From NCBI GenBank assembly GCA_039935955.1, contig JBDTJH010000210.1:2799-66798 (forward strand): a DNA stretch of 64,000 nt, given 5' to 3'. This stretch comes from Gemmatimonadaceae bacterium. Lineage in GTDB: Bacteria > Gemmatimonadota > Gemmatimonadetes > Gemmatimonadales > Gemmatimonadaceae. The position numbers and the translations under genes are program-made. Shown in pieces: positions 4,785 to 53,713 of this stretch; the first letter of the stretch is position 1; every line of letters starts with the position of its first letter. The notes below the pieces were generated by a model, which ran no database searches, had not been told where the DNA came from, and was given only the letters and a program-made list of their open reading frames with translations.

Positions 4785-6488
4785 TTGAAGATACGGGGCG
4801 CTACTTTGCGGAGGTACATCGCCGGATCGGTTGCATGCACCGCGAATCGTCTCGTCGCGCTTGTGACAGTAAGCACGCTTTTCACCTGTGCTCCCGTCTC
4901 CGCACAACAGCCGCGGACGATCGTGATCGACTCCGCACGTCGTTCGCTCGAAGTGGGGCAATCGACCACCGTTCGGGCGACCGTTCTTGACTCCGCCGGT
5001 CACGTTGTTCAGCGTGCCGTTGCTTGGTCTAGTGACAATCCTGCGATCGCCCGTGTCGATGCCGATGGAGTCATCACCGCCGCCGGCGCCGGCGTGACCG
5101 GAGTGAGCGGAAGGATCGGTCCGAACGTGGCGTCGACACAGGTGAGCGTGTATTCGTCCTCCTCCGCGGGCACCGTGAAAGATCACGCCGATGGAGGGCA
5201 GCTCGAGCACACCAATGTGGTGGCGTCGAGGGCGCTGGCGAGAAGCGGGACGGCTCGATCTCCGCACTACTCGCACATTAGCGTGTTTTACACGGATTTC
5301 TATTCCACCTATGCGTCTCCATCTGACCGCGACGCGACGATCGCCTTCCTCGGCCCGCGAGTGGATGCGATAATGTCGGGGCCGGCGGCGGCGTGGAAGA
5401 ATGTGAATCCCACGGTTCGATACTTCCCATACGCGTTGCAGTACGAGGTCGTGCAGAGTCCGTCCGGAAAATCCGACGCCAGTCTGACGACGGCCTTTAC
5501 AGCCGACATGATTCACTGGTATGCGTCGCATCTCAAGTACGATTACGAATCCGCGTATCTGCATCGAGGTGGTCACGATTCGACTCATCGAGTAGCGTTC
5601 AAAAATGAGTCATATCGGTGGCTCATCAATCCCGACGACGCAGGCTCGCGCGCGTACCAGGCTGACCGTTTCGTGCGCATCGCGGAGGGACACGCAGGCG
5701 TATTTCTCGATGAATTCGGGGGCCCGATGTACGGCGCGATTAAGCCGACGGACGAATTCGCGACCGGCGCGGCGTATCTCGCGTCGGAAGCAGCGATGAT
5801 CGCGCACATTCACGCGGCGATTGCTCCCCGCATACTACTGATCAACATCGCGGAATACTGGACACCAACGGATTCGGCGATTGTCGTGGCGGGTGGCGGC
5901 GCACAGCTCGAGCGAACGAATTATCCATTTAGCGATCGAACCGAGGGCCGCTGGACGCAGATCGACCATCTGCTGGCAAGTGGTGTCTATACGGAGTTCG
6001 TGACGGCGATCTCGTATTCCGAATGGGCCGGCGTCACGCACAAGCATCCCAGCTTTGATGGAGGGCTCTACAGCTCGCCTACGGAGCGCGGGCAAATGTC
6101 GCAGCTCGCGAGCTACTACATGGCGGTGGGCGATGATCCCCAGCAGCTCTCATTCGATCAGCAGAATTTCTGGAATATTCGCCCGGACAAAGCGTGGGCG
6201 AGCGCGGTGGAGGTGGATGTTGGACATCCTGTGCAGGCGAGACACATCATCGCTAGGGGAGCCGATCCGAAGGGTCAGCAATATCGGATCTACGCGCGGG
6301 AATTCGAGCGCGCACTCGTGCTCGTGCGACCGGCCGTGGATTGGCGAACGACCGTCTACGGCGATGACACCGCGATCGAAGTCCCCCTGCCAAAGCCGAT
6401 GCGGTTGCTCCACCGCGACGGGACACTCGGAGCTTCCGTGACGAGCGTGAAGTTGCGGAACGTCGATGCCGCAATTCTCATCAAATAG
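4785..6488 (+). CDS. Secreted protein: signal peptide, one Big_2 (bacterial Ig-like) domain and an unassigned roughly 430-aa C-terminal domain (paralog A)
   Basis: There is no ATG; the start is TTG at 4785 or 4806. The signal peptide ends VSTLFTCAPVSA-QQ. The Big_2-like stretch reads LEVGQSTTVRATVLDSAGHVV...WSSDNPAIARVDADGVITAAGAGV. The C-terminal domain aligns along its length with the C-terminal domain of 7956-9962. The upstream part of the 670-aa ORF overlaps the sugar-transferase gene and is rejected. Confidence 0.7.
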   Translation: MKIRGATLRRYIAGSVACTANRLVALVTVSTLFTCAPVSAQQPRTIVIDSARRSLEVGQSTTVRATVLDSAGHVVQRAVAWSSDNPAIARVDADGVITAAGAGVTGVSGRIGPNVASTQVSVYSSSSAGTVKDHADGGQLEHTNVVASRALARSGTARSPHYSHISVFYTDFYSTYASPSDRDATIAFLGPRVDAIMSGPAAAWKNVNPTVRYFPYALQYEVVQSPSGKSDASLTTAFTADMIHWYASHLKYDYESAYLHRGGHDSTHRVAFKNESYRWLINPDDAGSRAYQADRFVRIAEGHAGVFLDEFGGPMYGAIKPTDEFATGAAYLASEAAMIAHIHAAIAPRILLINIAEYWTPTDSAIVVAGGGAQLERTNYPFSDRTEGRWTQIDHLLASGVYTEFVTAISYSEWAGVTHKHPSFDGGLYSSPTERGQMSQLASYYMAVGDDPQQLSFDQQNFWNIRPDKAWASAVEVDVGHPVQARHIIARGADPKGQQYRIYAREFERALVLVRPAVDWRTTVYGDDTAIEVPLPKPMRLLHRDGTLGASVTSVKLRNVDAAILIK

Positions 6489-6515: not shown

Positions 6516-7613
6516 TTGCCGGTGACGCCGCTCGTCGCACGTGCACGCCACCTTCCAGCGCTCGACGGTCTTCGCGCCGTCGCCGTATTCATCGTCATTG
6601 CCTACCACGCCGAATTGATCCAGGGAATTCCCGGCGACCTGGGCGTCACGCTCTTCTTCGTACTGTCCGGCTTCCTCATTACGTGGTTGCTGCTGCGGGA
6701 GTTCGCCTCGACCGGATCGATATCGATACGTGCGTTCTACACGAGACGTGCGCTCCGAATTTTCCCAGCCTACTACATGTTCATCCTCTTTTCTCTGGCG
6801 CTCGACACCGCACGGGGGCATCGCTGGTCGCTTGGCCTGATCTCGGTCGCCTTCACCTACCTCGTCAACTATTACAATGCTTTTCTCGGGCATCCGACGA
6901 CGTCGATCGCGCATGCGTGGAGCCTGGCAGTCGAGGAGCAGTTCTACTTGCTTTGGCCATTGGCGTGTCTGGCCCTTCTCCATCGCTCGCGCGCAGTCGC
7001 GAGGCGTACGGTTGGAATCGTCATCGTAGCTGTCGTCCTCTGGCGATCGGCGCTGTATCTGTTTCTGCACGCGCCAGCCTCATACGTCTACAACGCGTTT
7101 GATACACGGTGTGATGCGCTGGCGATCGGCTGCTTTATCGCTCTCTCATCCGAGGAGAGCTGGTTCGCTTCTCTCGAACGACGAATTCGGTCATCATCGT
7201 TGTTGCCGCTAGTGCCGATCGCCTTGATTCTGCTGTTTCGACACTATTCCTCACTAGCGTATCACTATAGCGTCGGGATGACGGTCGACGCGGTACTGAT
7301 CGCGCTTTTCATGATTCAGATGCTCGGACTTTCGACGACTCGACTCTGGTCCTGGCTCGACCATCCGATAACTCGCACACTTGGTCTCATCTCCTACCCG
7401 TGCTATCTGTATCATGCATGGGGACTGTCCGTGGGGGAGAAACTTCTCCCTCATGGCCCAAAGGTGCTGACGTTTGCAGTGGGTTACGCCGCTACGCTTT
7501 GTATGGCGTGGGGCTCGTTCAAGATCATCGAGCGTCCGTTTCTCACCATCAAGGATCGCATCTCCGCGTCTCCTCCAAGCGCGCAAAACGTGTCGGTCGG
7601 CATCGGTCTGTAG
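6516..7613 (+). CDS. Acyltransferase family 3 (integral-membrane O-acyl/acetyltransferase, OafA/WecH-like)
   Basis: The N-terminal signature is LPALDGLRAVAVFIVIAYH. About 10 predicted TM helices follow. SLAVEEQFYLLWP resembles the family motif. The start is TTG. Confidence 0.88.
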   Translation: MPVTPLVARARHLPALDGLRAVAVFIVIAYHAELIQGIPGDLGVTLFFVLSGFLITWLLLREFASTGSISIRAFYTRRALRIFPAYYMFILFSLALDTARGHRWSLGLISVAFTYLVNYYNAFLGHPTTSIAHAWSLAVEEQFYLLWPLACLALLHRSRAVARRTVGIVIVAVVLWRSALYLFLHAPASYVYNAFDTRCDALAIGCFIALSSEESWFASLERRIRSSSLLPLVPIALILLFRHYSSLAYHYSVGMTVDAVLIALFMIQMLGLSTTRLWSWLDHPITRTLGLISYPCYLYHAWGLSVGEKLLPHGPKVLTFAVGYAATLCMAWGSFKIIERPFLTIKDRISASPPSAQNVSVGIGL

Positions 7614-7955
7614 CGCCCACTCTCTCTCCGACACCACATAGATTTTCTTAGCTCGGCGCGACGCGGCGCAGTCAAGCGTCACTGTAATCATATGTATCAA
7701 CGTCGCCGCGTTAAGCGCGCGATGACCGCAACAAAACCACGCCATAAATCCATCGTGACGTCCGGCAAAGAAGACGCGTCTCTCCACCACGATCATCCTA
7801 CTAACCCATAGTACGGCGCGATCGCATGGGCTCATGCCCGGCGACAACGGCAAACCCGCCGAAAGACGGGGACGCAAAGCCAACGAGACTAAGGTGTGCC
7901 ACCCGGCACATTACGTCGGTCGGGTTGCCCGAAGAGCCTGTAAGGACTTTGGCTT

Positions 7956-9962
7956 ATGTCGATCTCTCGCCATGCACTCGCGCTCGCGAGCTGCGCGACC
8001 GTTGTCGCCTGCTCGGCAATGACGGATCCGTCGGCCTCTACCAACTCTCCACAGTCACTTGCGAGATGGATGATCATCTCGCCGGCGCAGCCGACGATAC
8101 CACCCGGCCAGACTCTGCTTCTCTCCGTTCGCATGCTGGACTCGGCCGGTCGCGACATCGCCGGCCAGCCCGAGTTGTGGACCACGAGCGACTCCTCGAT
8201 CGCATCAGTAGCCAGCGATGGAATGGTGAGCGCGCACTCCATCGGGAACGCGCAAGTCACGATCACGTCGGGAAACCGACGCGTCTCTGCGCTCGTGACC
8301 GTGTCGAACACATCGCCCGCGCCGACGTGGGTAACAGTGGACCCTGGAACCGCGCAGGTCTCCGTTCGCAGTACGCTCCGCTTGCTGTCGTCCGTAACGG
8401 ACGTCCACAATCACCCGCTTTCCAACGTACGAGTGACGTGGACGAGTGCCGACCCGTCGGTCGCTGGCGTCGATTCGACTGGCGTTGTTACCGGTGTTAC
8501 GACCGGTTCGGTCAACATTATCGTACATACGGCTTCGAATCAGGCTACGGCGCAGCTGACTGTAGTAGGCGCCAGCGCGACGCACCCTCCTGCGCCGCAG
8601 ACGCCGAACCAGCCCGCTCCGCCCCCGCCGCCGCCGCCGCTCCCACCGACATCCGCAGGCTCGTTGTATAGCGGATATAGCGCCGTCTCTCCGCACTGGC
8701 CGCACATCCGCACCGCCATCACTGACTTTTATTACTCGTGGAACGACGTTGAACGGCAGTGGGCGGGTCAGCACTACGACCTCTCGATGTCAGGGAGTGC
8801 CGCCGCGTGGAAAACCGTAAACCCGACGATCCAGAATTATCCGTACGTCCTCCTCGGCTTCACCGTGCTGCCCGCCGCGACGCCGTCAACCGGTATCCCC
8901 TCGAGCCAGTGGTACGACGATGCGGTGAGATGGTATTCGGGTCATACGCAGTACAACATCGAGACTGCATTCCTGCATCGCCTCGGTCAGCCAGCTGATG
9001 CCGCGCATCGCCTCAAGCCCTACGGATGGAGCTCCTATATCTGGGTTATCAACCCTGGAGATCCCGGCCTCATCGCCTACCAAACGGATCGTTTCCGGCG
9101 TCTCGCCTCGGGCCAGGATGGTCTCTTCATCGATGTTCAGGCATCGGGGGATTTCGCATCGTTTCTGAAGGACTCCAGTGGCCGCTCGAGCGAGTATACG
9201 AGTAGCGGTACCAGCTGGCCGCCCAGCGGCCAGTATTTTTCCGATTACGCGGCGCTGCTTCGCGCGCTCAAGAGCGCGGTTGGAACGGCCGTGCTGCAGC
9301 CGAACACTGCGACCTACAGCTTCGATCCCGATTTTGCGGACGTCAGCGCTGCCGGCGCTACGCACATGGAGAAGGCGAACAATCCGCTCTTCAGCGGACT
9401 GCCCGCCACCTGGAGTTGGATCGACAAGATGATCGGCGCTTCGGTGTCCGTGAACTTCGTCGATGCGCTCGACTATTCAGACATGAATTCCCTGAAGGTA
9501 CGTCTGGGGGGCAGCGCAGACAGTGCGTTCCATCGGATCAAGATGTTCGAGCTCGCCAGCTACTACATGGTCGTCCCCCATTCGCCTGACAAACTGCAGC
9601 TTCAGCTCGTGAACGAATGGAGCCGCCCCTTCTCGACGGTGTGGATAACGGCGCAGGAGGCGAACATCGGACACCCGACGGACATGCGTCAATCGCTGTC
9701 ACAGTCGGTTGTGGGCACCGATCCGTCCGGTCAGCAGGTGGTAGTGTATCAGCGCGACTTCGATCGTGCCCTCGTGATAGCACGGCCACAAACGGGATGG
9801 GGGACGCAACGCTACGACGATGCGTCAGCTGTTTCGATCCCACTTCCATCGAGCGAGACATGGGTTCCTCTGCACGCCGACGGAACCCTCGGCTCGCCCG
9901 TGACCACCATCAAGCTGAGAAACGCGGAGGCGGCGATTCTGATAAAGAAGCGAACGATTTAG
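7956..9962 (+). CDS. Secreted lipoprotein: two Big_2 domains, a Pro-rich linker and the same unassigned roughly 430-aa C-terminal domain (paralog B)
   Basis: The lipobox is LASCATVVAC. Two Ig-like repeats are present (…TSDSSIASVASDGMVSAHSIGNAQVTI… and …TSADPSVAGVDSTGVVTGVTTGSVNII…). The linker reads PAPPPPPPPLPP. The C-terminal domain shares AAWKTVNPT..YPY and the terminal DGTLGSPVTTIKLRNAEAAILIK with paralog A. Confidence 0.8.
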   Translation: MSISRHALALASCATVVACSAMTDPSASTNSPQSLARWMIISPAQPTIPPGQTLLLSVRMLDSAGRDIAGQPELWTTSDSSIASVASDGMVSAHSIGNAQVTITSGNRRVSALVTVSNTSPAPTWVTVDPGTAQVSVRSTLRLLSSVTDVHNHPLSNVRVTWTSADPSVAGVDSTGVVTGVTTGSVNIIVHTASNQATAQLTVVGASATHPPAPQTPNQPAPPPPPPPLPPTSAGSLYSGYSAVSPHWPHIRTAITDFYYSWNDVERQWAGQHYDLSMSGSAAAWKTVNPTIQNYPYVLLGFTVLPAATPSTGIPSSQWYDDAVRWYSGHTQYNIETAFLHRLGQPADAAHRLKPYGWSSYIWVINPGDPGLIAYQTDRFRRLASGQDGLFIDVQASGDFASFLKDSSGRSSEYTSSGTSWPPSGQYFSDYAALLRALKSAVGTAVLQPNTATYSFDPDFADVSAAGATHMEKANNPLFSGLPATWSWIDKMIGASVSVNFVDALDYSDMNSLKVRLGGSADSAFHRIKMFELASYYMVVPHSPDKLQLQLVNEWSRPFSTVWITAQEANIGHPTDMRQSLSQSVVGTDPSGQQVVVYQRDFDRALVIARPQTGWGTQRYDDASAVSIPLPSSETWVPLHADGTLGSPVTTIKLRNAEAAILIKKRTI

Positions 9963-17388: not shown

Positions 17389-18830
17389 GCACTGCCGGGA
17401 GCGCGGCGCCATTCTGGGAGAAGGCTGGATCGCCAGCGCAGGATGCACATCGGCTGCTCGTGATCAGCTACCACTTTCCGCCCGACACGACCATCGGGGC
17501 GCGTCGTTGGGAGAAGCTCGCGAATGCTGTGACGGAGCGTGGATGGGGGCTCGACGTCATCACCTGCGCGCCGACGTCACCGGTGGGCGCGAAGCTCGAC
17601 TCGCTTCCGGCTGGGGTGCGCGTGTATGGTATCGCGGATCCGGAGCTGATCTCGGAGCGCATCGAGCACGTGCTCTGGCGCATATACCGCACGGTGTGGC
17701 CGAAAAGGAAAGCTGAGGCGAGTGCACGCGCGGCAGGCGGGGGCCCTGCGCACGTTGTGCGCGAGCGACCGGAGTCGCTCGACCGTTCGGAGATTCGCGG
17801 CAGCGCTCGCACGCCGCGCGAAGTAATGCGCACCTATTGGGCATGGCTCGAGCTCACGCACGGAATGCGCTGGGCGCACGCTGCCGCAGCGCTCGCGCAG
17901 CGTACTATCGTGAAGGGGGTGCATGACGCCGTGATCATATCGGCGCCGCCGCACATGAGCCACGAGGCAGGCAGGCTCGTATCGCTCGCAACCGGGCTGC
18001 CGTTCGTGATGGATATGCGCGATCCGTGGAGCCTTCAGCCATGGCTGCGGGAGAGTGTCGCAAGTCCACTCTGGTACAAACGTGCCAAAGAGTGTGAGCG
18101 CGCGTGTGTCGAGCAGGCGAAGTTGATCGTGGCGAATACGGAGCCTGCTCGTATCGCACTCGCGGATGCGTATCCGGACGCGCGCGACAGGATCATCACG
18201 GTGATGAACGGATCGGACGATGATCCGCTTCCGCCGCACCGTCACACCGATCGCTTCACCATCGGCTATGCGGGAACCATCTATCTCGATCGCGATCCGC
18301 TGCTGCTCTTTCGCGCCGCGGCGGAGGTGATCAGGGCTGAATCGCTCTCCGCTGCGCAATTCGGCATCGACATACTCGGGCGCCTCGCGGCCGAGGAGCA
18401 TCTACCGCTATTCGCAATGGCGACGCGCGAAGGAATCGCGGACTACGTGACGGTCGAGCCGCCGCGGCCGCAGCAGGCTGCCTTCGAGTTTCTCGCCGGC
18501 GCATCGATGCTCGTGATCTTTCCCGGCAGTAACTCACTCGCGATTCCCGCTAAGGTATTCGAGTACATCCGCTTCGATTCGTGGCTCCTGACGATCGCAG
18601 AGCCGCAGAGTGCGATAGCGCAACTGCTGCGCGGCTCGACCGCGGATGTCGTGGCGCCGGAGGTCGATGCCATCGCCGCCGCGATCACGGCGCGCTACCG
18701 TGACCATCGAGCCGGCGTGCGACCCACGCGGGTCGCGCGCGACGACCGCTACAGCCGCCAGGCGCAGGCGCGGGTGTTGCTCGATGCGGTCGCGAAGCTC
18801 GTTCCGGCGCCGGCGATGAAGACTACGTGA
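17385..18830 (+). CDS. GT-B glycosyltransferase (GT4-like, WcaI/WbuB-like)
   Basis: The GTG start overlaps the wzx stop as GTGA. The N-terminus reads LLVISYHFPPDTTIGARRWEKLA, and VMDMRDPW is also present. The C-terminal Rossmann half contains PAKVFEYI. The upstream part of the 644-aa ORF overlaps wzx and is rejected. Confidence 0.75.
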   Translation: MSTAGSAAPFWEKAGSPAQDAHRLLVISYHFPPDTTIGARRWEKLANAVTERGWGLDVITCAPTSPVGAKLDSLPAGVRVYGIADPELISERIEHVLWRIYRTVWPKRKAEASARAAGGGPAHVVRERPESLDRSEIRGSARTPREVMRTYWAWLELTHGMRWAHAAAALAQRTIVKGVHDAVIISAPPHMSHEAGRLVSLATGLPFVMDMRDPWSLQPWLRESVASPLWYKRAKECERACVEQAKLIVANTEPARIALADAYPDARDRIITVMNGSDDDPLPPHRHTDRFTIGYAGTIYLDRDPLLLFRAAAEVIRAESLSAAQFGIDILGRLAAEEHLPLFAMATREGIADYVTVEPPRPQQAAFEFLAGASMLVIFPGSNSLAIPAKVFEYIRFDSWLLTIAEPQSAIAQLLRGSTADVVAPEVDAIAAAITARYRDHRAGVRPTRVARDDRYSRQAQARVLLDAVAKLVPAPAMKTT

Positions 18831-19944
18831 GCAGGAGACCGCGGTAGAGTGAGTCGTAGCGATCGGCCATCGTGGCGATCGCGTAGTCGCGCTGAGCGCG
18901 CAGTCGGCCGGCGTCGCCCAGCCGGCGGCGCGTGGCGGCGCTGTCGATCAGGCGCTCGAGCGCGTTGGACAGTGCACGCGCGTCGGACGGCGGTACGAGC
19001 AATGCCTCGACATCGTTGGTGACGACCTCCGGGATTCCGCCGACGCGCGAGACCACTACGGGCAGCCCGAACGACATCGCTTCCACGAGTGCGAGCGGCA
19101 ATCCCTCCGACAGCGACGGCATCGCGAAGATATCTCCCGCCGCGAGGATGTCGGGGATGTCGTCGCGGAAGCCGAGGATGTGCACGCGCGCGTCGAGCCC
19201 CGCGGCGGCGGACTGCGCGCGGAGCCGCACCTCCTCTTCGCCCCGCCCCGCGATGGCGAGCTGCCACCCCGCGCGATCGGCGAGCATCGACAGCGCCTCA
19301 ATCAGAACGGCGTGTCCCTTCACCGGATACAGATTGCCGACCGCGACGATCAGCAGATCGTCATCCGGAATCCCGAGCTCTCGGCGGATGCGATCGCGAA
19401 CGCCAGCGCGCTGTGGGATGCCGTTCGGCACTACGACGACTTTCTCGCGCGGGATATTGAGCGCCTGAGCGAGCGTGTTGGCGGTGGCGACGGAGACGCC
19501 CACCAGCGCGTCGCTGCGTCGCGAGGCCCAACGCAGGGCGGCGCGGCGCCGCCACGCGGAAGCGTAGTAGAGGCCGCCGTGCATCGTGATCACGTGTCGC
19601 GCGCCCGCGCGCCGGGCGGCGGCGGCACCGTAGATCGCCATCGTGAACTCGTGACTGTGGACGACGTCGGCGCGGAAGTCGCGCAGGATCGTGGTGAGCG
19701 CGCGCACCGCGGCGAAGTCGACGGGGCTGTCGATCGCGAACGTCGTCGGCTTGAATCCCGCCGCCTCGAAGCGCTCGCCGAGCCATCCGGTGCCGTTGGC
19801 GAGATTCACGGGAAGTACTTCGTGCCCGCGCGAGCGCAGCTCCGTCGCCAGGTCGAGCATCATCAGCTCGGCTCCGCCGGGTCCGTCGCACTCGATCATG
19901 AGCGCGATGCGGAGCGGCACGTCGCGAATCGCGGTGCTCGTCAT
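18823..19944 (-). CDS. Family-4 (GT-B) glycosyltransferase
   Basis: The start is MTSTAIRDVPLRIALMIE (ATG 19944), which overlaps the upstream stop as ATGA. Motifs are GPGGAELMMLDLA and PSLSEGLPLALVEAMSFGLPVVVSRVGGIPEVV. Confidence 0.88.
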   Translation of the reverse strand: MTSTAIRDVPLRIALMIECDGPGGAELMMLDLATELRSRGHEVLPVNLANGTGWLGERFEAAGFKPTTFAIDSPVDFAAVRALTTILRDFRADVVHSHEFTMAIYGAAAARRAGARHVITMHGGLYYASAWRRRAALRWASRRSDALVGVSVATANTLAQALNIPREKVVVVPNGIPQRAGVRDRIRRELGIPDDDLLIVAVGNLYPVKGHAVLIEALSMLADRAGWQLAIAGRGEEEVRLRAQSAAAGLDARVHILGFRDDIPDILAAGDIFAMPSLSEGLPLALVEAMSFGLPVVVSRVGGIPEVVTNDVEALLVPPSDARALSNALERLIDSAATRRRLGDAGRLRAQRDYAIATMADRYDSLYRGLLLT

Positions 19945-21131
19945 CGTCGGCGAAACCAGTCGAGCGTCTCGCGGATGAATGGGCGCACGTCGCGCGTGCG
20001 GAAGACATCGCTGCGGTTGTGCGGATGCATCAGCGAAAAGAACTCGAGGGTCGCGCGCGCGCGCGATGGCGCGTCGGAAGGAAGGGCGAGACTCGCGTCG
20101 CTCCCCCGCCAGCGCGCGAGGAGCTGGTCGACGTCGCCCCACCACCACCGGATGCGCGCGCCACGACGATAGCTCGTCACCGACTGTATCGGGTCCCCGG
20201 ACGCCGCCGCGATGAGCAGCGCCGGAAAATCGACTCCCGCGTCGATCGCAAGCTGCAGCGAGCCCCAGAAGCGTCCGTTAACCTCCATCAGATACGGCAC
20301 CCCGGTGCGCGCGTCGAGCTTATACTCGACCATCGCGACGCCATTCCACCCCATGCGCTCGAGCAGGAGCCGCGACTGCTCTGCGAGCTCGGGATCGGCG
20401 GCGATGCTCTCCGAGTAGACGCTCACGCCGCCCGACGGCGGCTTTTCGCGCAGACGCCGGTGCGCGAACGTCGCGCGCACGACGCCATCCCACACGAGGA
20501 GAAAGACCCCCGTGCCCGGCCCGACGATCCGCTGCTGGATGAGCAGCGGGAATGCCGCGTCGTCGAGCGATTCGACCATCGGACGCAGTGACGCCGCGTC
20601 GGCCACGTGTATCACGCCGAGCGCGATGCGCTTGCCAGCGTGCTCGCCCACGGAGCGCGAGGGCTTGAGGACCACGGGATAGTCGAGCAGCGTCGGATCC
20701 ATCGCGCGCAGATCATCCTTCGAATTGAGCACCACCTGCCGCGGCGTTGCGATCCCGAGCTCGCGCGCGATCGCGAGCACAGCGCTCTTGTCCATGATCG
20801 CGCGCACGACGCGCTCGTCGGGAAACGGGATGGCGGCACCGAGCGTCGCGCGCTCGGGGAGCAGCGCGAGCAGCGAGGCTTCGGTGATCGGGACGAGCAT
20901 CTCGATACGCCATCGGTCCACGAGCAGCGTCACTTCCGTTACAAAGTCCGCGGGTGCCACCAGTGGATCGGGAACCGCGGACTCCGCGAACGAAAAGCGC
21001 GACGACCCGGCGAGCGACGGCACACGCGCCGCACACACGAACACCGTATGCCCCGCCCTGCCCAGCGAGCGCACGACGGCGAGCGCGCTCCGCTGCGTGC
21101 CGTCGGTGACGAGGATGCGGCGCGGCTTCAT
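19941..21131 (-). CDS. ATP-grasp domain protein (carboxylate-amine ligase-like)
   Basis: The start is MKPRRILVTDG (ATG 21131, ATGA overlap). ATP-grasp features are YPVVLKPSRS, LLIQQRIVGPG, GVAMVEYK and YLMEVNGRFWGS. Confidence 0.8.
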   Translation of the reverse strand: MKPRRILVTDGTQRSALAVVRSLGRAGHTVFVCAARVPSLAGSSRFSFAESAVPDPLVAPADFVTEVTLLVDRWRIEMLVPITEASLLALLPERATLGAAIPFPDERVVRAIMDKSAVLAIARELGIATPRQVVLNSKDDLRAMDPTLLDYPVVLKPSRSVGEHAGKRIALGVIHVADAASLRPMVESLDDAAFPLLIQQRIVGPGTGVFLLVWDGVVRATFAHRRLREKPPSGGVSVYSESIAADPELAEQSRLLLERMGWNGVAMVEYKLDARTGVPYLMEVNGRFWGSLQLAIDAGVDFPALLIAAASGDPIQSVTSYRRGARIRWWWGDVDQLLARWRGSDASLALPSDAPSRARATLEFFSLMHPHNRSDVFRTRDVRPFIRETLDWFRRR

Positions 21132-22045
21132 CGCAGTCGTGCGCCGGCGCAGCGGAGCGCGAAGCCCGCGGCCGAGAGGCCGGACGGCACGTCGAGACGC
21201 GGAATTGCGAATGGATTGCTCGCGCCGCGTGAGATCCATCCACCTTCGATACGCAGACCTGCCGTGTATCCCGCAGCCGCCGCCACGCGCTCGACGTCGG
21301 GCGAGGAGAGTCCGTACGGATACGAGATCGCGGGAAGCACGTTGGAGAATCTCGCGCGCAGCCACGAAAGGGGTCTCTCGAGCTCCGCGCGCAGCTCGTC
21401 GCCCGCGAGGCGCGCGAGATTCGGATGACGGTGTGTGTGCGAGCCCATCGTGATTCCCTTCACGGCTGCAGCGGCAACGAGGTCGCGCTCGCTCGCGCCG
21501 CGCGCGTGCGACGGAGGCGCGTTGACGACGGCGAGATGCTCGCGCGCGGCGAGCTCGCGCACGCGCCCATCGAGCCCCGCGCACGCCGCGAGCGCGCGCG
21601 CCCGAAGCTCGGCTGTGGGCGCGCTCGCGCCGGGCGCCGTCAGCGCATCCCACCAGAAGTCGCCGCCGTTCACGAACGCCGTCGCGACGAAGATCGTCGC
21701 GGGAAGTCCTCGCGCCGCGAGCTCGGCGACGCCGGCGGTCACCGCACCCTCATATGCATCGTCGAAGGTGACGACGGCCGCAGGGCGATCGCCCGCGTGT
21801 CCTGTGAGCGCGCGCTCGAGTGGAATCACGTCGTGCGTGCGCATCAACTCATCGAGCTGCTCGGCGAAGCGCGACTGAGTGAGATGCAGCGAGCGGTCGC
21901 CGGCGGCGCCCTGGCCAGTCGGCACGATGTTGTGATACGCGAGCACGAGCACCTCGCCTCGCCGGCGCGCGCGCATCACGCGTGGAAGGCCGCTCCACAA
22001 TGCGCCGTGCTCGATCGTGCTCTTCACGAGACCGCGGAGATTCAT
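21128..22045 (-). CDS. Polysaccharide deacetylase (NodB/CE4 family)
   Basis: The start is MNLRGLVKS (ATG 22045). Motifs are VLAYHNI, VVTFDDAYEG, ATIFV and GSHTHRHPNL. Confidence 0.85.
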   Translation of the reverse strand: MNLRGLVKSTIEHGALWSGLPRVMRARRRGEVLVLAYHNIVPTGQGAAGDRSLHLTQSRFAEQLDELMRTHDVIPLERALTGHAGDRPAAVVTFDDAYEGAVTAGVAELAARGLPATIFVATAFVNGGDFWWDALTAPGASAPTAELRARALAACAGLDGRVRELAAREHLAVVNAPPSHARGASERDLVAAAAVKGITMGSHTHRHPNLARLAGDELRAELERPLSWLRARFSNVLPAISYPYGLSSPDVERVAAAAGYTAGLRIEGGWISRGASNPFAIPRLDVPSGLSAAGFALRCAGARLR

Positions 22046-22064
22046 GTCGTGCGCGAGCGGGCGA

Positions 22065-23504
22065 TCAGCGCCGCGCGTCCGCGCCCTGGATGGTCGCTTC
22101 GATCGCGTTGCGCACCGCACCCAGGTCCGCCTCCGCCGGCGCCGTGCGAGGGGCGAGCCGCACGTTGATCTGCGGCTTCGGCGGCGGCCCGCTCATGGCG
22201 CGCATGCGCACGAGCTTGACCAACCCCACCGAAAGCGCGAGCAGAAAATACAGATACGCGAAGTACTCCGCGGACACGAAGATCCCAGAGATCGCGAATC
22301 CGACGATTGTCGCGATCAGCATCTGCGCGAGCGAGATCTCCCGCGTCGACACCCATCTTTTGAACTTTCCCCGCTTCGAGATACGGGACAGCGACACACC
22401 GGTCACTATAAGAATGGCGACGAACACCGCGAGCCCCGGAATTCCCAGCTCCGCGCCTGTCTCGAGAAACGAGTTGTGCGCGACCGACCACTTGAACCCG
22501 GCTCCCTGCGCTTGAAGACTCTGGGCGAGATCCGATCCTCCCTCTGCCATGGGATACGCCGCGACTCCGACACCGACGACGGGGTTGTGCATCATGTAGC
22601 CCATGCCGCGCTTCCACACCTCGACGCGCCCCTCGTTCGACGTGTAGTTGTAGTCGGTGGTGGGATGCAGAATCGTCGACATCATCTCCCAGTACTTGTC
22701 GCTCGCGAAACCGAAGAAGAGCGCGACGCCCGCGACCGTGATGAGCAGTCGCGTGCGACTCGGGATGGCGCGATAGAAGAGCAGGATATACACCATGATG
22801 CCGATCAAGCCGATGAATCCGCCGCGCGAGCCGCTCTTCACCATCGCGGTGAGAAACATTCCGAGCGCGACCAGCGCCGTAATCCGTCGAGATGCTTTCT
22901 GCCCTTTGCCGAGAAAATAGAAGGCGAATGGAATCGTGCAGACCATCACGAGTGCGAAGTCGTTGGCGTCGTAGTAAATGAGTGAGCCGAGTCGTCCGTC
23001 GCCGCCCACGTGAAAGAAGAGCGCGACGACGATCGCAAAGGCGAGCGCGCCGTAGAGATTCATCAGCGCGTACCATTCGATATCGCGGATCGTGCGCACG
23101 GTCGACGCGACGAGGATGTAGAAGACGACGTCGGGAACGTAACTCTTCAGTACGAACTCGGCGCTGTGCCCAAACCAGAGACTGAACGGAACGCCAATGA
23201 TCATGAGGACCAAGAGCGCGAATATCAGTTGCGATGTGCGCTGCGAGGTGACCGCACGGATGCGGCGCATAGGATGCTTGACGCCGGCGAAGATGAGCAC
23301 CGCCGCGATGAGCGCGATGAGCGCGATCTGGAGCTTTCCCAGGATCGGGAAAGCGTCCTGGATTCGCCACACGTAAGTGAAGATCATGAGCGCGACGGCC
23401 CGCATCAGGCGGTCCGGGCGCGGCTCGGCGTTCGCCGGAGACGTCGAGACGATCGGATTTCTTCCGGTCGGTTGACGCTGGAAAGTCATGGCAGGTATGG
23501 ACAT
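22065..23504 (-). CDS. O-antigen ligase / Wzy-like polymerase family membrane protein
   Basis: It has about 10-12 TM helices. The Wzy_C-type signature is KSGSRGGFIGLIGIMVYILLF, followed by a large loop. The start is uncertain. The sigma-54-like site at 23518-23533 would favour an internal start such as MRAVALMI (23405). Confidence 0.8.
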   Translation of the reverse strand: MSIPAMTFQRQPTGRNPIVSTSPANAEPRPDRLMRAVALMIFTYVWRIQDAFPILGKLQIALIALIAAVLIFAGVKHPMRRIRAVTSQRTSQLIFALLVLMIIGVPFSLWFGHSAEFVLKSYVPDVVFYILVASTVRTIRDIEWYALMNLYGALAFAIVVALFFHVGGDGRLGSLIYYDANDFALVMVCTIPFAFYFLGKGQKASRRITALVALGMFLTAMVKSGSRGGFIGLIGIMVYILLFYRAIPSRTRLLITVAGVALFFGFASDKYWEMMSTILHPTTDYNYTSNEGRVEVWKRGMGYMMHNPVVGVGVAAYPMAEGGSDLAQSLQAQGAGFKWSVAHNSFLETGAELGIPGLAVFVAILIVTGVSLSRISKRGKFKRWVSTREISLAQMLIATIVGFAISGIFVSAEYFAYLYFLLALSVGLVKLVRMRAMSGPPPKPQINVRLAPRTAPAEADLGAVRNAIEATIQGADARR

Positions 23505-23517
23505 CGGTGGTCATGCC

Positions 23518-23533
23518 AGCGAATAGGGTGCCA
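23518..23533 (-). promoter_or_regulatory. Candidate sigma-54 -24/-12 promoter for the Wzy-like/deacetylase/ATP-grasp/GT4 operon
   Basis: The minus strand reads TGGCACcctatTCGCT. It has an exact TGGCAC, GG-N10-GC spacing and one mismatch to TTGC. It shares TGGCACCCTA with the site at 27096-27111. Confidence 0.5.
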
Positions 23534-23960
23534 CTATCTGGCGGTCGATGAACGTCACGAATGCGCTGCTTGTTGCGGGAGAGCCACACTCCCCACGATC
23601 AACACGTCGCAGTCCGAGAAATCTCGGGAAGCCGTATAGCCCCCTTCTGACACGCCCCGCGGGCCGATATCAGTCAAGTGGGACGAGCTTCCCTCCAATT
23701 CGTGAACGCCGAGCCGGCGGGGCGAGCGCGGTGATCGAAAGCTAAGGATCAATCGGCTCGCGCGCCCGCGTTTGGATTGGCGCCGCCGACCCTGCTTGCC
23801 TGGAGGACGATCTTTGCCCAGGCGTTTCGAAGCCCAAATCGTCGGTATCGCTGCGCCGACATTGCCATCGTCGTTGAGCGGCATGCACCGCTGGGAAGCG
23901 AGCACCGTGATCGACACTGCCGCGTCGAACGACTCAACCTTATACGGGCATCATAATTCG

Positions 23961-25118
23961 TCAACCCAGCCAGCTGGTCAGGTCGCGAAGATCATCGTCG
24001 TTCACCATCGCATGCGTCGGAAGCGTGACGAGCGTGCGCTGCAGCTCTCGCGCGCCCGAGAGTGTCTCGCCGCCGCTGAGCGATGCTTGCAGCTCGACGA
24101 GCTCGGCAATTGTGTTCGGATAGCCGCGCACGATGCCGAGATCGCTACGCTCCATTCGCGCGTCGGCGACGCGCACCGGAAAGCGCAGATAGCCGGGCAC
24201 GCTGCCGGGAATGGCGCGGATCGTCCGCACGCGGCGCGAGCGTGCGGCCATCTGGTCGAGCTCCTCGGCGTGCGTGCGGCGCACCGCGAGATCCGCATTC
24301 GCGCGCGCGAGCGCCGCGCGCACGAGCGACGCGGAGACGCCGGTGATCCCGCGCGGCTCGTGCGCGGGATGGTAGATCGTCTCGCCCAGGTGCAGCGCGG
24401 GGATCGCCGACGGGATCGCGTACAGAGACGGACGTCCGAGGATCCACTGCGCCTTCGTCAGCGCGAGCGTGCGCAGCCCGCTCCGTGACGGCTCGAGTCT
24501 CGCGGCTCCTGCTGCAATCGCCTCCGAATAGCGCGCTCCCATTCCGAGCAGCGCGCCCCCACCTCCCCCCGTCATCCCCTTCCCTCGGCCGAAGCTCAAC
24601 ACGGTGAGCGGGCCGAACGCGCCGAGCCGCGTCTCCAGCAACTTGCCCCACGCGCCCTGCGCCGCATCCTCGATCACGGTAACGCCGTGCGCGGCCGCGA
24701 GCGCAGCGACGCCGGGCACATTCGCCGGATAGCCAAAGAGATGCGCGACGACGATCGTGTCGATGCCTTCGCCGAGCACGCGCGACACGGACTCGAGATC
24801 CGGAGAGAGGGTGACGGGATCGACATCGTAGAGTCGCACGCGGAGCTTCGCGAAGATCGCGGCCGCGCCGATGTCGACGCACGCGTACGCCGGAAGAGCG
24901 ACGGTTCCGCCTTCGCGCGTGGCGATTCGTAGCGCCAGGACGAGCGCGGAGGTGCCGCAGTCGACGAGCGCGACGTCGCTCGCGCCGAATGCCCGCTTGA
25001 GCTCCGTGCCCAACGCGTCGCGGTCGCGCGCGCCGCCGCCGAGCGCGGGTCCGATCGCATCGATGAGCGAGCGTGCGGTGATCGTCGAGCTCACCGGAAG
25101 CTGGTGGCGGAAGCTCAC
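23961..25118 (-). CDS. DegT/DnrJ/EryC1/StrS-family PLP-dependent sugar aminotransferase
   Basis: Motifs are DCGTSALVLAL, VVAHLFGYPA and VIEDAAQG. The Schiff-base lysine context is LSFGRGKGMTGGGGG. Confidence 0.85.
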   Translation of the reverse strand: MSFRHQLPVSSTITARSLIDAIGPALGGGARDRDALGTELKRAFGASDVALVDCGTSALVLALRIATREGGTVALPAYACVDIGAAAIFAKLRVRLYDVDPVTLSPDLESVSRVLGEGIDTIVVAHLFGYPANVPGVAALAAAHGVTVIEDAAQGAWGKLLETRLGAFGPLTVLSFGRGKGMTGGGGGALLGMGARYSEAIAAGAARLEPSRSGLRTLALTKAQWILGRPSLYAIPSAIPALHLGETIYHPAHEPRGITGVSASLVRAALARANADLAVRRTHAEELDQMAARSRRVRTIRAIPGSVPGYLRFPVRVADARMERSDLGIVRGYPNTIAELVELQASLSGGETLSGARELQRTLVTLPTHAMVNDDDLRDLTSWLG

Positions 25119-25125
25119 GTCCGGA

Positions 25126-26151
25126 TCAAGGGATGTAGCGCACGATGCGCGGGCCGAGCATCGTCGTCACCGATGCCGGAAGTCGCTTCCAGATGCGCGG
25201 GCCCCACGAATAGCCGGAGTCCGTGGGCGACGGCGTCTTCACGTCCGCAGTCGCGGCGCGATCGTACCACCAGAGTTGCTCGTCGCGGGTGCCCCACTGC
25301 GTCTTGAAGCGATGCGTGCCGCTGCCCGGCGACGTGCGTCCGAAGTTGAACGTCGTGATGCCATTCTCGATCGCGCGCTCCATGAATCGATAATAGAGGA
25401 GCATGTTGGGCGCGATGCGCTTGTGCGCGTTGAGCGACGACGCCCACGTCATCTCGAGCTCGGTGCCCCACTGGAAGGCGCAGCCGCACGCCACCGGCCG
25501 GGCTTCGTACCAAGCACAGCCGAACCATGCATCGTCGGGAAAGATGGCGGCGATCGTCTCGAAGAGGATGCGCGGCTGCGTCGGGGTGCCGAGGTCGCGC
25601 ATGTGATGCGCAAAGACCTCGAAGAAGGGCGCGACCTGATCGGCGCCGAACTTCACGGTGACCCCTTCCTTCTGCGGACGACGCACCTGGCTGCGCAGCT
25701 TCGCATCGAGCTGCTTCATGAGCGCGGGCTCGCTGTTCGGAAGATCGAGAAGCACAGTGATCTTGCGATGCGACACGGGGATGTCGATCGGCAGCTCGAT
25801 GCGGCTGCGGAGCTCGAGCAACTTGACACCGGAGTCGCGCGCGATCTCCGATGCGTGCGCGACGAGGGCGATGATCGCGTCGTCGGAGCCAAGTGGGCCG
25901 CCGTAGTTGAGGAAGGGCATCGACACGAGAAAGTGTCCGAAAAGCATGCTCTTCACGCGGACGAGTGGGAGCACGCCGGCGAGTGCGCCGCTGTCGTCGA
26001 GAGCCGCGAGGTAGATGCACTCGTGGCCGAAGACGCGCTCCATCACCGCGCGCCAACCGTAGAGATGAAAGTGGGTGAATCCGGGCGAGCGGCGCGCGAG
26101 AGCGTCCCACTCGTGCGCGGCTCCCGCGAAGCGTTCGACGCGCGCGATCAC
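25126..26151 (-). CDS. FemAB-like / GNAT-fold acyltransferase of the PEP-CTERM (XrtA) locus type
   Basis: The GTG start at 26151 overlaps the upstream stop as GTGA. The sequence FTHFHLYGWRAVMERVFGHECIYLAA...LPLVRVKSMLFGHFLVSMPFLNYGGP matches my recollection of the FemAB-related PEP-CTERM-associated family. Confidence 0.8.
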   Translation of the reverse strand: MIARVERFAGAAHEWDALARRSPGFTHFHLYGWRAVMERVFGHECIYLAALDDSGALAGVLPLVRVKSMLFGHFLVSMPFLNYGGPLGSDDAIIALVAHASEIARDSGVKLLELRSRIELPIDIPVSHRKITVLLDLPNSEPALMKQLDAKLRSQVRRPQKEGVTVKFGADQVAPFFEVFAHHMRDLGTPTQPRILFETIAAIFPDDAWFGCAWYEARPVACGCAFQWGTELEMTWASSLNAHKRIAPNMLLYYRFMERAIENGITTFNFGRTSPGSGTHRFKTQWGTRDEQLWWYDRAATADVKTPSPTDSGYSWGPRIWKRLPASVTTMLGPRIVRYIP

Positions 26152-27041
26152 TCGACGGCGCTGGCCGCCCTGTTGCCCGTCGCGAAGGACATCGGAAGCT
26201 TGAGGCACTGCGCAGCGCTCCGGAAACGGAACTCACCGAGCAGCCGCTCGAGCAGCGGCTGCGTTTTGCGGAGCCCGGCGTAGTGCCGCATGCGTGTGTG
26301 CCACGGCACCGCGATTCGTGGCTGATCCGGATCGAGCTCCCACGGATGAATGTAGAACATCGCGGGGACGCCACTCACATCGTGCTCGCGGAACGCGCGC
26401 TGGATCAGGCGAAACGGCAGGTGGCGGAGATACGCGCCGCCGGCCGCGGGGAGGCGCATCCCACGCCACTGCGTCGTCGCAAGCGGGAGCTCAGTGAGCG
26501 TGCCGGCAGGGCGATGGATGAGATGCGGCACCGGGGGCGCGCTCGGATATCCGTAGCCTGGACGCCGGATCGGGAAAAGGCTCGAGTCGTAGCGATAGCC
26601 TTCTTCGAGCAGGATGTCGAACGCCCATTCGGTGCCGGGCGATATCGAGAAGTTCGGGGCTCGAAAGCCCCACACCGGCGAACCGGAAAGATCCTCGAGG
26701 ATGGCTTTCGATACGCGGATATCTTCGCGAAATTCATCCGGCGTCAGCGTATCCACGCGACGATGCCAATGTCCATGCGATGCGATCTCGTGTCCCGCAT
26801 CCACAATACGACGCATGAGAAACGGATGACGCTCAGCCACCCAGCCCAACGTGAAGAACGTCGCGTTCGCATGATGGCGCGCGAGCAGCTCGAGGATGAT
26901 GCCGATCGAGTGCTCGAGACGGCTCGGATGCGAATCCCAATCCTTTCGCTGCACGACACGATCGAACGCGCCGACCTGGAAATATTCTTCCACGTCGACG
27001 GTGAAGATGTGCTCAGTGGCGCAGTGAACCGGCAAGCTCAT
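26148..27041 (-). CDS. Polysaccharide deacetylase, PEP-CTERM/XrtA-locus subfamily (CE4)
   Basis: The start is MSLPVHCATEHIFTVDVEEYFQV (ATG 27041). Motifs are ATFFTLGWVAERHP, IASHGHWH, FRAPNFSI and FYIHPWELDPDQPR. Confidence 0.88.
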   Translation of the reverse strand: MSLPVHCATEHIFTVDVEEYFQVGAFDRVVQRKDWDSHPSRLEHSIGIILELLARHHANATFFTLGWVAERHPFLMRRIVDAGHEIASHGHWHRRVDTLTPDEFREDIRVSKAILEDLSGSPVWGFRAPNFSISPGTEWAFDILLEEGYRYDSSLFPIRRPGYGYPSAPPVPHLIHRPAGTLTELPLATTQWRGMRLPAAGGAYLRHLPFRLIQRAFREHDVSGVPAMFYIHPWELDPDQPRIAVPWHTRMRHYAGLRKTQPLLERLLGEFRFRSAAQCLKLPMSFATGNRAASAVE

Positions 27042-27095: not shown

Positions 27096-27111
27096 TGCAG
27101 TTAGGGTGCCA
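27096..27111 (-). promoter_or_regulatory. Candidate sigma-54 -24/-12 promoter for the deacetylase/FemAB/aminotransferase operon
   Basis: The minus strand reads TGGCACcctaaCTGCA. It has an exact TGGCAC, GG-N10-GC spacing and one mismatch to TTGCA. The -12 element lies about 55 nt upstream of ATG 27041. Confidence 0.55.
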
Positions 27112-27126
27112 CCTGCGGCTTTCCCC

Positions 27127-41131: not shown

Positions 41132-41292
41132 CGGGGTTAGAAAGCTAATGGCTACATTCTCGGCTCATCAGCGTCGATCGACGCGGGCACGAAAATTTCC
41201 AATCGAATCCAGCAAGACGAGGGCAGCTTCGTCCGCGCACGCGCCGCGTTGACGCGCCGCACTCCTTGCGCCTCCACCCCGTCTTCGTCTGC

Positions 41293-42543: not shown

Positions 42544-42547
42544 AGCC

Positions 42548-43507
42548 ATGACCCAGATCGCCGTCGCGATCGTCAACTACAACACCATCGGCGATCTGCG
42601 CAACTGCCTCGCCACAGTGCGCGCCGCAGGCGCGACCGAGATCGTGCTCAAGGACAATGGTTCGACAGACGGAAGCGTGGAGATGGTGGAGCGCGAATTT
42701 TCCGAGGTGCGAGTGCTCGACTCGCGCGACAATCCCGGCTACGGTGCCGCCTCCAACCAGGCGATCGCCGCCTGCCGCGCGCCGTACGTGCTCCTGCTCA
42801 ACAGCGACATCCTCCTCGCGCCCGAGACGCTCGACGTGCTCGTCGAGTATCTCGACGCGCACCCGCGCGCCGCCATCGTCGGTCCGCGACTCCGGAATCC
42901 GGACGGCACGCTACAGCGCTCCGCGCACGCCTTTCCTCGGCCAGTTACGCTGCGCCCCGTCGTCCGGCACATCCCCGGGCTGCGCGACCGTTCATTGCTT
43001 ACCTGGCCTCACGACCAGCCGCGCGTGGTCCAGTGGGTGAAGGGAGCCGCGCTCGCGATCCGCCGCACGGCGTTCGACGCGGTCTCTGGATTCGACCCCG
43101 CATTCTTCATGTATTTTGAAGAAACCGATCTCTGTTATCGGCTGCACGAGGCGGGCTGGGAGATCCACTTCACCCCCGCGACGACGATCGTGCACAAGGG
43201 CGGCGCGAGCACCGAGCAGATGAGGGCCGACATGGCGGTGCAATTCTACGCAAGCATGCGGCAGTTCTATCGATATCACTATCCCACCGCCGATCTGCGT
43301 CGACTCGACGCGGTGCTGCGCCTGCAGTCGCGGCTCGCCCTCGCGCGCGACCGCGCCCGGTTGCTGTCCACCCGCGATCCGCGAGCCGCCGCAATACTCG
43401 CGGACGACGTTCGTGTCTGGCGCCGAGTGCTCGCGGGCGACTGGCCTGTGCGGCCAACACCCGTTTCAGCACCAGAGCCACAGGAAAAAATCGATCACCG
43501 GCCGTAG
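42548..43507 (+). CDS. Family-2 glycosyltransferase (rhamnosyltransferase-like)
   Basis: The start is MTQIAVAIVNYNT. Motifs are LKDNGSTDGS, NPGYGAASNQ and LLLNSDI. Confidence 0.88.
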   Translation: MTQIAVAIVNYNTIGDLRNCLATVRAAGATEIVLKDNGSTDGSVEMVEREFSEVRVLDSRDNPGYGAASNQAIAACRAPYVLLLNSDILLAPETLDVLVEYLDAHPRAAIVGPRLRNPDGTLQRSAHAFPRPVTLRPVVRHIPGLRDRSLLTWPHDQPRVVQWVKGAALAIRRTAFDAVSGFDPAFFMYFEETDLCYRLHEAGWEIHFTPATTIVHKGGASTEQMRADMAVQFYASMRQFYRYHYPTADLRRLDAVLRLQSRLALARDRARLLSTRDPRAAAILADDVRVWRRVLAGDWPVRPTPVSAPEPQEKIDHRP

Positions 43508-53641: not shown

Positions 53642-53713
53642 GGCAAGCCCAATGGACCGCGTGGCGAAAACCGCGTCGAGCGGCGTCGTGGCTGATGAAA
53701 TGACGCTTCTTGG

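Follow-up and report, generated by a model that had tools for sequence, protein, structure and literature searches.

Putative deacetylation and aminoacylation genes at the end of a Gemmatimonadaceae exopolysaccharide locus

What product would be made by a gene group that combines two deacetylases of family CE4, a FemAB-like transferase, a DegT-like pyridoxal phosphate (PLP) enzyme and an ATP-grasp ligase? Such a group lies on the minus strand, at positions 18823-27041, of a 64-kb stretch of DNA from a Gemmatimonadaceae bacterium (contig JBDTJH010000210.1), and the whole stretch that was analysed is called the window below. A preliminary description of the sequence had proposed that a sugar is aminated or de-N-acetylated and then re-acylated with an amino acid. 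This pathway is the best-supported reading of the locus, judging from the fold and the Phe-Lys motif of the FemAB-like protein, the conserved residues and the co-occurrence of the genes. On balance, we lean towards two cassettes in the cytoplasm, both of which would first free an amine and then form an amide, at the tailoring end of a Wzx/Wzy exopolysaccharide (EPS) locus with an ancestry in the loci of exosortase XrtA. The same description regarded the chemistry of the deacetylase/FemAB pair as not established; this view is out of date, because genetics and mass spectrometry of the homologous VimE/VimA pair indicate a seryl/glycyl replacement (PMC7468200).

Seven genes in two units

Using the list of open reading frames (ORFs), NCBIfam and Pfam profiles and a reading of the sequence, we found seven genes in the stretch (Table 1). 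Their order is TIGR03006-type deacetylase, FemAB-like protein, DegT-like protein, a gap of 456 nt, Wzy_C protein, second CE4 deacetylase, ATP-grasp protein and GT4 glycosyltransferase. The preliminary description had listed the DegT, two CE4, ATP-grasp and FemAB proteins correctly, but the Wzy_C and GT4 genes also belong to the stretch. The tight coupling that it described was seen in the minus-strand sequence at each of the junctions concerned: the stop codon of the first deacetylase gene overlaps the GTG start codon of the FemAB-like gene (GTGA, 26148-26151), those of the second CE4 and ATP-grasp genes overlap the start codons of the ATP-grasp and GT4 genes, respectively (ATGA, 21128-21131 and 19941-19944), and 7 nt separate the FemAB-like and DegT-like genes (25119-25125). 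However, the 456-nt gap divides the stretch into two units. The second CE4 gene had been given a longer ORF with a GTG start, instead of which the ATG at 22045 is most likely the start codon. The GC content of the window is about 66%, and, for the ATP-grasp and FemAB-like proteins, close homologues carry a Gemmatimonadaceae label.

Catalytic residues are kept in all five tailoring enzymes. None of the deacetylases (including the TIGR03006 type), the FemAB-like protein, the DegT-like protein and the ATP-grasp protein has a signal peptide or other export signal in its sequence; because of this, and because the ATP-grasp enzyme needs ATP, we place the tailoring chemistry in the cytoplasm.

In the first unit, the deacetylase exceeded the curated cut-off of TIGR03006 (333.3 bits against 276.2, model positions 3-269 of 272) and the FemAB-like protein that of TIGR03019 (287.4 bits against 260.35, model positions 2-330 of 330), so that the assignment of both proteins to XrtA-locus families held when checked with the NCBIfam (TIGRFAM) models. 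Orthologues of the deacetylase occupy the same position in three related loci (L001, L016 and L036). The AlphaFold2 model of the FemAB-like protein (pLDDT 93.6) has the FemX-type tandem-GNAT fold. When the model was compared with the PDB by Foldseek, the 26 best neighbours were all aminoacyl-tRNA-dependent transferases; they include FemX_Wv (E 1e-18, TM 0.68-0.70), Sba18/Sbb17 with the bound amino-sugar acceptor streptothrisamine (TMt 0.79-0.80), FemX_Sa, FemA and MprF, and acetyl-CoA-dependent tandem GNATs rank lower. The F-K-x-x-W-G motif of the protein (F282-K283-x-x-W286) is invariant, with F282 and K283 present in 21/21 sequences. The motif aligns with AFKKVWG of Staphylococcus aureus FemX (6snr), whereas the alignment with FemX_Wv ended before residue 305. 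Lys305 is the catalytic residue of FemX_Wv, and in the equivalent Phe-Lys pair of DhpH-C, Lys329 is essential and Phe328 contributes to the activity (PMC12945691).

The DegT-like protein matched PF01041 with 87 bits (cut-off 19.8), only at model positions 28-185 of 360 (residues 35-191), and its C-terminal half is conserved only within its own subfamily and with the DegT protein of the Desulfovibrio vulgaris plasmid pDV1. Its best matches are 4-keto-6-deoxy-sugar aminotransferases. Because the Asp and Gln of the EDAAQ motif (D151, Q154) and the PLP lysine of the S-x-x-x-G-K motif (S175, K180) are invariant in 17 orthologues, the protein is probably an active PLP enzyme.

In the second unit, the Wzy_C protein matched PF04932 (74 bits) and, under the cut-off of 188, TIGR03097 (88 bits); it is encoded by the sole polymerase/ligase-like gene of this EPS locus. 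The second CE4 protein matched PF01522 with 59 bits, and its family profile matched the structures 6dq3 (E 2e-32), 4v33, PgaB, BpsB and IcaB, including the LMYH segment, which places it in the PgaB/IcaB/PplD-like subgroup. Its residues H38, D95, D96, H203 and H207 (metal triad, base Asp and Y-H His) are invariant in 19 sequences, and we take H38, by comparison with PgaB, to be the catalytic acid. Residues 282-287 of this protein (window 21185-21199) read P-R-L-D-V-P in the Gemmatimonadaceae/Longimicrobiales clade and P-R-x-N-(I/V)-H and then an acidic residue in all other clades, while the N-terminal Y-H His and the metal ligands are kept throughout. We considered that the protein lacks its catalytic-acid His, Pro being found in place of the His of the C-terminal R-x-N-I-H; this was dismissed, because the acid in the PgaB/PplD-like subgroup is the N-terminal Y-H histidine, which is invariant.

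The ATP-grasp protein matched PF15632 (46 bits, cut-off 29) and has 7478 relatives at E<1e-5. A fold search with its AlphaFold2 model (pLDDT 91.6), which has the three-domain fold of the ATP-grasp superfamily, gave 460 PDB matches at E<=1e-3, of which the top 50 were all ATP-grasp enzymes; because these neighbours are generic, they do not assign a substrate. K156, Q199, E283, N285 and R287, among them the ATP-binding Lys and the Mg-binding Glu/Asn, are invariant. The best NCBIfam matches of the GT4 protein were TIGR03088 (178 bits) and then BshA (129 bits), both under the cut-off. In mycothiol and bacillithiol synthesis, a GT4 (MshA/BshA) and a deacetylase are followed by an ATP-dependent ligase which acts on the amine of glucosamine. 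The coupled GT4, CE4 and ATP-grasp triad of the window, with BshA as the second-best match of its GT4, resembles this logic, although the deacetylase and the ligase come from unrelated families and the predicted product belongs to a polymer instead of being a small thiol.

Conservation of the gene set

To compare gene neighbourhoods, we used 80 loci from species-representative genomes, which were obtained by a scan with the ATP-grasp alignment. They span Gemmatimonadota, Gammaproteobacteria (including the isolate Steroidobacter gossypii, Thiodiazotropha and Chromatiales), Nitrospira, Desulfuromonadales, Desulfobulbaceae, Zixibacteria and Terriglobia. The ORF immediately upstream of the ATP-grasp gene carries PF01522 (CE4) in 40 of 66 loci, and a GT4 gene is immediately downstream in 27 of 71. 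A FemAB-like gene is present in 16 of the 80 loci, with a DegT-like gene directly after it in 13 of these 16, and the TIGR03006-type deacetylase is present in only 10 of the 80. FemAB-like, DegT-like, CE4 and ATP-grasp genes occur together in 11 of the 80 loci; in Steroidobacter (L057, L062) and Thiodiazotropha (L064), they stand side by side. In a 4.03-Mb Gemmatimonadaceae contig (L001), whose ATP-grasp protein is 70% identical to that of the window, the whole order (S9 peptidase, VanZ, deacetylase, FemAB, DegT, Wzy_C, CE4, ATP-grasp, GT4) is kept, the sole difference being an additional gene for 465 amino acids at the site of the window gap. Because other Gemmatimonadaceae contigs keep the order and CE4/ATP-grasp and FemAB/DegT-like neighbours are met repeatedly in different phyla, the grouping exceeds chance, and the four genes are a portable set found across several bacterial phyla.

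The trio of the first unit was also found outside the Gemmatimonadaceae in an operon with XrtA. On pDV1 of D. vulgaris Hildenborough (L002), the deacetylase, FemAB and DegT genes lie within the XrtA operon, together with PEP-CTERM proteins, XrtA, EpsI and a sigma-54 enhancer-binding protein (EBP). The DegT protein which follows FemAB there has 32-39% identity to the DegT-like protein of the window over both halves; this homology needed a direct comparison, as a tblastn search of plasmids with the DegT-like protein at E 1e-10 gave no match. The pDV1 homologue of the window ATP-grasp protein (26% identity) is encoded after a sialidase-family gene at the end of the locus. A TupA-like ATP-grasp protein within the XrtA operon was also considered as the homologue and was rejected, its sequence being unrelated to that of the window protein. 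The XrtA locus of pDV1 accordingly has two unrelated ATP-grasp genes, one for the TupA-like 'sugar-transfer associated' protein and one for the homologue of the window protein (24124-25440 and 40073 onward, respectively).

On haloarchaeal plasmids, homologues of the ATP-grasp protein (33-36% identity) are encoded beside polysaccharide deacetylases, GNATs and WbpA/B/E/D-like genes. We rejected these neighbours as members of the same module: in pairwise BLASTP comparisons, the GNAT and the deacetylase of Halobacterium zhouii had no detectable similarity to the FemAB-like and CE4 proteins of the window, and the Natribaculum deacetylase resembles the TIGR03006 type instead of the second CE4. With neither the deacetylases nor the GNATs of haloarchaea orthologous to the window proteins, the archaeal association is valid at the family level only.

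Some relatives of the ATP-grasp protein are linked to a phosphoesterase. In Vibrio alfacsensis pVa1 (L005, 7947-9737), the protein is fused to a C-terminal domain like a low-molecular-weight phosphotyrosine phosphatase (LMW-PTP), and the ATP-grasp gene is preceded by an overlapping PTP gene in Halobacterium zhouii (L007, 6291-8116) and by an overlapping PHP phosphoesterase gene in Natribaculum luteum (L003, 7333-9146). In those lineages, the links hint that a substrate or an intermediate is phosphorylated.

A putative pathway and its alternatives

In the following scheme, we infer the substrates, the amino acid, the order of the steps and the use of tRNA. In the first cassette, the TIGR03006 deacetylase would de-N-acetylate an amino sugar, which may be a nucleotide sugar or part of a lipid-linked repeat unit; instead of this step or besides it, the DegT-like enzyme would convert a keto sugar to a sugar amine. 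The amine would then receive an aminoacyl group through the FemX-like transferase, most likely from aminoacyl-tRNA. In the second cassette, an N-acetylhexosamine would be added by the GT4 and de-N-acetylated by the PgaB/PplD-like CE4, and the ATP-grasp enzyme would use ATP to form a further amide, by which it may acylate the freed amine or extend or cap the aminoacyl group; its role is the least certain step of the pathway. The decorated unit would be polymerised by the Wzy_C protein.

The two enzymes of the first cassette have counterparts in the Wbp/Vim pathway of oral bacteria, in which VimE is a CE4 protein and a conserved-domain search gave a TIGR03019 match for VimA (Veith et al. 2020, PMC7468200). 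Evidence from mass spectrometry and from complementation between species indicates that this pair replaces the 2-N-acetyl group of the Wbp-pathway sugar with a seryl group in Porphyromonas gingivalis or a glycyl group in Tannerella forsythia, and the aminoacylated linking sugar is the attachment site of type IX secretion system (T9SS) cargo (PMC7468200). The window locus resembles the Wbp/Vim system in the pairing of a CE4 with a FemAB-like transferase and in the proposed cytoplasmic removal of an N-acetyl group followed by the transfer of an amino acid (Ser/Gly). In contrast to that system, it has neither WbpA/B/D genes nor a T9SS or PorU context, and it has a DegT-like gene fixed beside the FemAB-like gene and a second CE4 coupled to an ATP-grasp protein, which the Vim pathway lacks. 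Of the genes for the Wbp substrate UDP-GlcNAc3NAcA, neither a UDP-GlcNAc 6-dehydrogenase nor a WbpD-type acetyltransferase was found anywhere in the window, and a Gfo/Idh/MocA fusion occurs in the second polysaccharide locus only. Since the related enzyme pair has been shown to do such chemistry in oral bacteria, the window locus is, by analogy, most likely a further example of Vim-type deacetylation and aminoacylation, not a new kind of system. The literature searched does not describe the DegT-like gene as a fixed partner, the cassette of CE4 and ATP-grasp(/GT4) or the set in places with no exosortase nearby; neither for the CE4/ATP-grasp pair nor for the DegT-like partner is there a curated family or any biochemistry.

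Other known systems share parts of this arrangement. As in the canonical XrtA/PEP-CTERM EPS loci of pDV1 and Rubrivivax gelatinosus (PMC1569441, PMC3684757), both marker models are above their cut-offs, and the window has Wzc-, Wza- and priming-transferase-type genes, a large sialidase-like hydrolase and sigma-54-like elements; the deacetylase-FemAB-DegT order is identical to that of pDV1. However, the TIGR03015 ATPase and the TIGR03016 outer-membrane protein are, like exosortase, EpsI and PEP-CTERM proteins, absent from the 64 kb, and the GT4 and Wzy_C proteins are under the XrtA-specific cut-offs (TIGR03088, TIGR03097). The tandem-GNAT fold and the Phe-Lys motif are shared with FemX/FemABX and with Sba18, Sbb17 and Orf11 of streptothricin-type antibiotics, and the Sba/Sbb enzymes aminoacylate the amine of an amino sugar (PMC12945691), although the identity of the window protein to these is 17-18% and its predicted acceptor is an EPS precursor, not an intermediate of peptidoglycan or an antibiotic. 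In the Caulobacter holdfast, an adhesive Wzx/Wzy polysaccharide, a CE4 deacetylase (HfsH) and a FemX-like tandem GNAT (HfsK) are likewise combined, and it has been proposed that the freed amines are re-acylated; in contrast to the window, HfsK is controlled by cyclic di-GMP through a C-terminal extension, and the pathway has no ATP-grasp or DegT-like partner (PMC5362036).

Several points weigh against the two-cassette pathway. No biochemistry exists for any protein of the locus or its close relatives, and the acyl donor of HfsK, a FemX-like protein of another EPS pathway, is not known (PMC5362036). The fold match of the ATP-grasp model is generic (TM ~0.6 to PurK, biotin carboxylase and L-amino-acid ligases), and a minority of its relatives are fused to or adjoin a phosphoesterase (LMW-PTP in Vibrio and Halobacterium, PHP in Natribaculum). 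For the supply of the DegT-like enzyme, the EPS locus encodes no dehydrogenase or dehydratase that forms a keto sugar; the closest candidates, rmlA/rmlB and a Gfo/Idh/MocA fusion, are 21-27 kb off in a second polysaccharide locus. The 64-kb window has no tRNA genes.

The aminoacyl sugar may, alternatively, be an anchor, its free alpha-amine serving as the nucleophile with which an exosortase or another C-terminal sorting transpeptidase attaches secreted proteins, in parallel to PorU with the Wbp/Vim linking sugar and to sortase with the Fem-built cross-bridge. Veith et al. suggested this role for VimA-related proteins of exosortase loci, D. vulgaris being named, and speculated that they make a similar amino-acid-modified sugar (PMC7468200). 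The TIGR03006 and TIGR03019 models were, in fact, defined by co-distribution with XrtA, the pDV1 trio shares its operon with XrtA, EpsI and PEP-CTERM proteins, and XrtA lies beside the module in L068 and L071. However, an exosortase was found within 10 kb in only these two of the 80 related loci, and the other 78 gave no exosortase, EpsI or PEP-CTERM tail. The window itself has no exosortase by NCBIfam, tblastn and jackhmmer searches and no EpsI or PEP-CTERM proteins by profiles and a regular expression, whereas jackhmmer and the regular expression recovered the exosortase and three PEP-CTERM proteins of pDV1 as positive controls. With the module also present where no sortase-type partner is known nearby, we regard the anchor as unlikely. 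Note that a VCSGLR motif in a 126-aa ORF (7271-7648) was rejected as an exosortase signature and attributed to chance, the ORF being in the wrong frame with respect to the real gene, too short for an exosortase and without jackhmmer support. A rather far-fetched extension is that the Gemmatimonadaceae module has been uncoupled from the exosortase and that its two orthogonal amide-forming systems, a tRNA-dependent Fem-type transferase and then an ATP-grasp ligase, act in series to build a peptide stem of at least two residues on a lipid-linked amino sugar; such a peptidoglycan-like stem on an exopolysaccharide might be the attachment point for an unrecognised protein-sorting system of the phylum.

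Other alternatives concern single enzymes of the set. In Campylobacter capsule synthesis, a uronate is amidated by a Cj1438-type amidoligase, and the ATP-grasp enzyme may similarly activate the uronic-acid carboxylate of the repeat unit and couple it, as an amide, to an amino acid or an amino alcohol (phosphate), the CE4 acting independently. Carboxylate activation is the chemistry of ATP-grasp enzymes, the WbpA/B/E/D-like genes which adjoin the haloarchaeal relatives make aminouronic acid, and the phosphoesterases fused to or adjoining some relatives fit uronate amidation with a phospho-amine better than N-acylation. We consider this amidation doubtful, as no UDP-sugar 6-dehydrogenase was found in the 64-kb window and the dominant conserved neighbour of the ATP-grasp gene is the translationally coupled CE4 gene, which argues for a common substrate. 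It is less plausible, and in our judgement quite improbable, that the FemAB-like protein uses acyl-CoA instead of aminoacyl-tRNA and re-acylates the sugar with a group other than an amino acid, an option discussed for HfsK after HfsH: its match to the GNAT family PF13480, the presence of acetyl-CoA-dependent tandem GNATs further down the fold list and the case of HfsK, a FemX-like tandem GNAT of an EPS pathway (PMC5362036), are consistent with such a donor, whereas the tRNA-dependent top 26 structural neighbours and the invariant Fem Phe-Lys motif argue for aminoacyl-tRNA, and VimA, a TIGR03019 match, decides between the addition of Ser and Gly (PMC7468200). Finally, the deacetylases may just free amines to give a partly cationic polymer, as in poly-N-acetylglucosamine, Pel and the holdfast, while the FemAB-like, DegT-like and ATP-grasp proteins act in unrelated steps. 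Of the relatives with solved structures, those closest to the second CE4 are PgaB, IcaB and PplD, which do simply de-N-acetylate polymers or linkage units, but they work outside the cytoplasm, whereas the window proteins have no export signals; with the genes joined by start/stop overlaps and their adjacencies kept across phyla, this explanation seems highly improbable.

If the pathway of deacetylation and aminoacylation is true, the abundant Gemmatimonadaceae of soil would be coated with an amino-acid-bearing, possibly zwitterionic polysaccharide, which would influence how soil aggregates, how desiccation is tolerated and how phages or predators recognise the cells. The gene set is present in the tractable organisms D. 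vulgaris Hildenborough (pDV1) and Steroidobacter gossypii S1-65 (an isolate), which bear on the nucleophile of exosortase systems and on the spread of Vim-type aminoacyl sugars beyond Bacteroidota.

Surroundings of the gene set

The seven-gene stretch forms the end of a Wzx/Wzy EPS locus, which also encodes a Wzc-like kinase (2-1669), a GGDEF-domain response regulator, a Wza-like exporter, a priming phosphoglycosyl transferase, secreted glycanase-like paralogues, a 1450-aa BNR/sialidase-like protein, glycosyltransferases and a Wzx flippase. Past this locus, a VanZ-like gene and housekeeping genes are followed by a second polysaccharide locus (window 41149-55783) with a TIGR04063-like glycosyltransferase, Wzx, short-chain dehydrogenase/reductase epimerases, a Gfo/Idh/MocA-epimerase fusion, rmlB and rmlA. 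The second locus could be a source of dTDP-4-keto-6-deoxyglucose or a 3-keto sugar for the DegT-like enzyme of the first.

The two sigma-54-like elements listed in Table 1 have TGGCACCCTA in common, and one would stand before each putative transcription unit. The XrtA-type EPS operons of pDV1 depend on sigma-54 and the EBP DVUA0057 (PMC4641369). In the window, no gene for an EBP was identified, and a search of the stretch for sigma-70-like promoters gave none. Terminator-like sites numbered 8, against 3.8 ± 1.8 in shuffled sequences, and were not accepted as real, all of them lying within genes or outside the operon.

Table 1. Features of the seven-gene stretch and positions in the window
Feature	Position	Strand	Remarks
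Sigma-54-like element TGGCAC-N5-CTGCA	27096-27113	-	Upstream of the deacetylase/FemAB/DegT unit; sequence read
XrtA-locus-type CE4 deacetylase	26148-27041	-	297 aa; TIGR03006, PF01522, PF11959 (DUF3473)
FemAB/FemX-like tandem-GNAT transferase	25126-26151	-	341 aa; TIGR03019, PF13480
Divergent DegT/DnrJ/EryC1-type PLP enzyme	23961-25118	-	385 aa; PF01041
Non-coding gap, 456 nt	23505-23960	-	Sequence read
Sigma-54-like element TGGCAC-N5-TCGCT	23518-23533	-	Inside the 456-nt gap, just upstream of the Wzy_C start; sequence read
Wzy_C-family membrane protein	22065-23504	-	479 aa; PF04932
Second CE4 deacetylase	21128-22045	-	305 aa from ATG 22045; PF01522
ATP-grasp carboxylate-amine ligase-type enzyme, family without a name	19941-21131	-	396 aa; PF15632
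GT4 glycosyltransferase	18823-19944	-	373 aa; PF00534, PF13439

The position of the 456-nt gap holds, in the related Gemmatimonadaceae loci L001 (6064-7461) and L016 (6105-7358), the gene of an exported 465-aa protein, which is a paralogue (36-41% identity) of the products of the glycanase-like window genes 5259-6485 and 8661-9947; no remnant of it was detectable in the window gap. At the other end of the stretch, a plus-strand gene for a protein of about 476 aa (17400-18830) converges on the GT4 gene. This protein has a weak MshA-like match only and its L001 orthologue has no Pfam match, while the synteny is kept across Gemmatimonadaceae loci.

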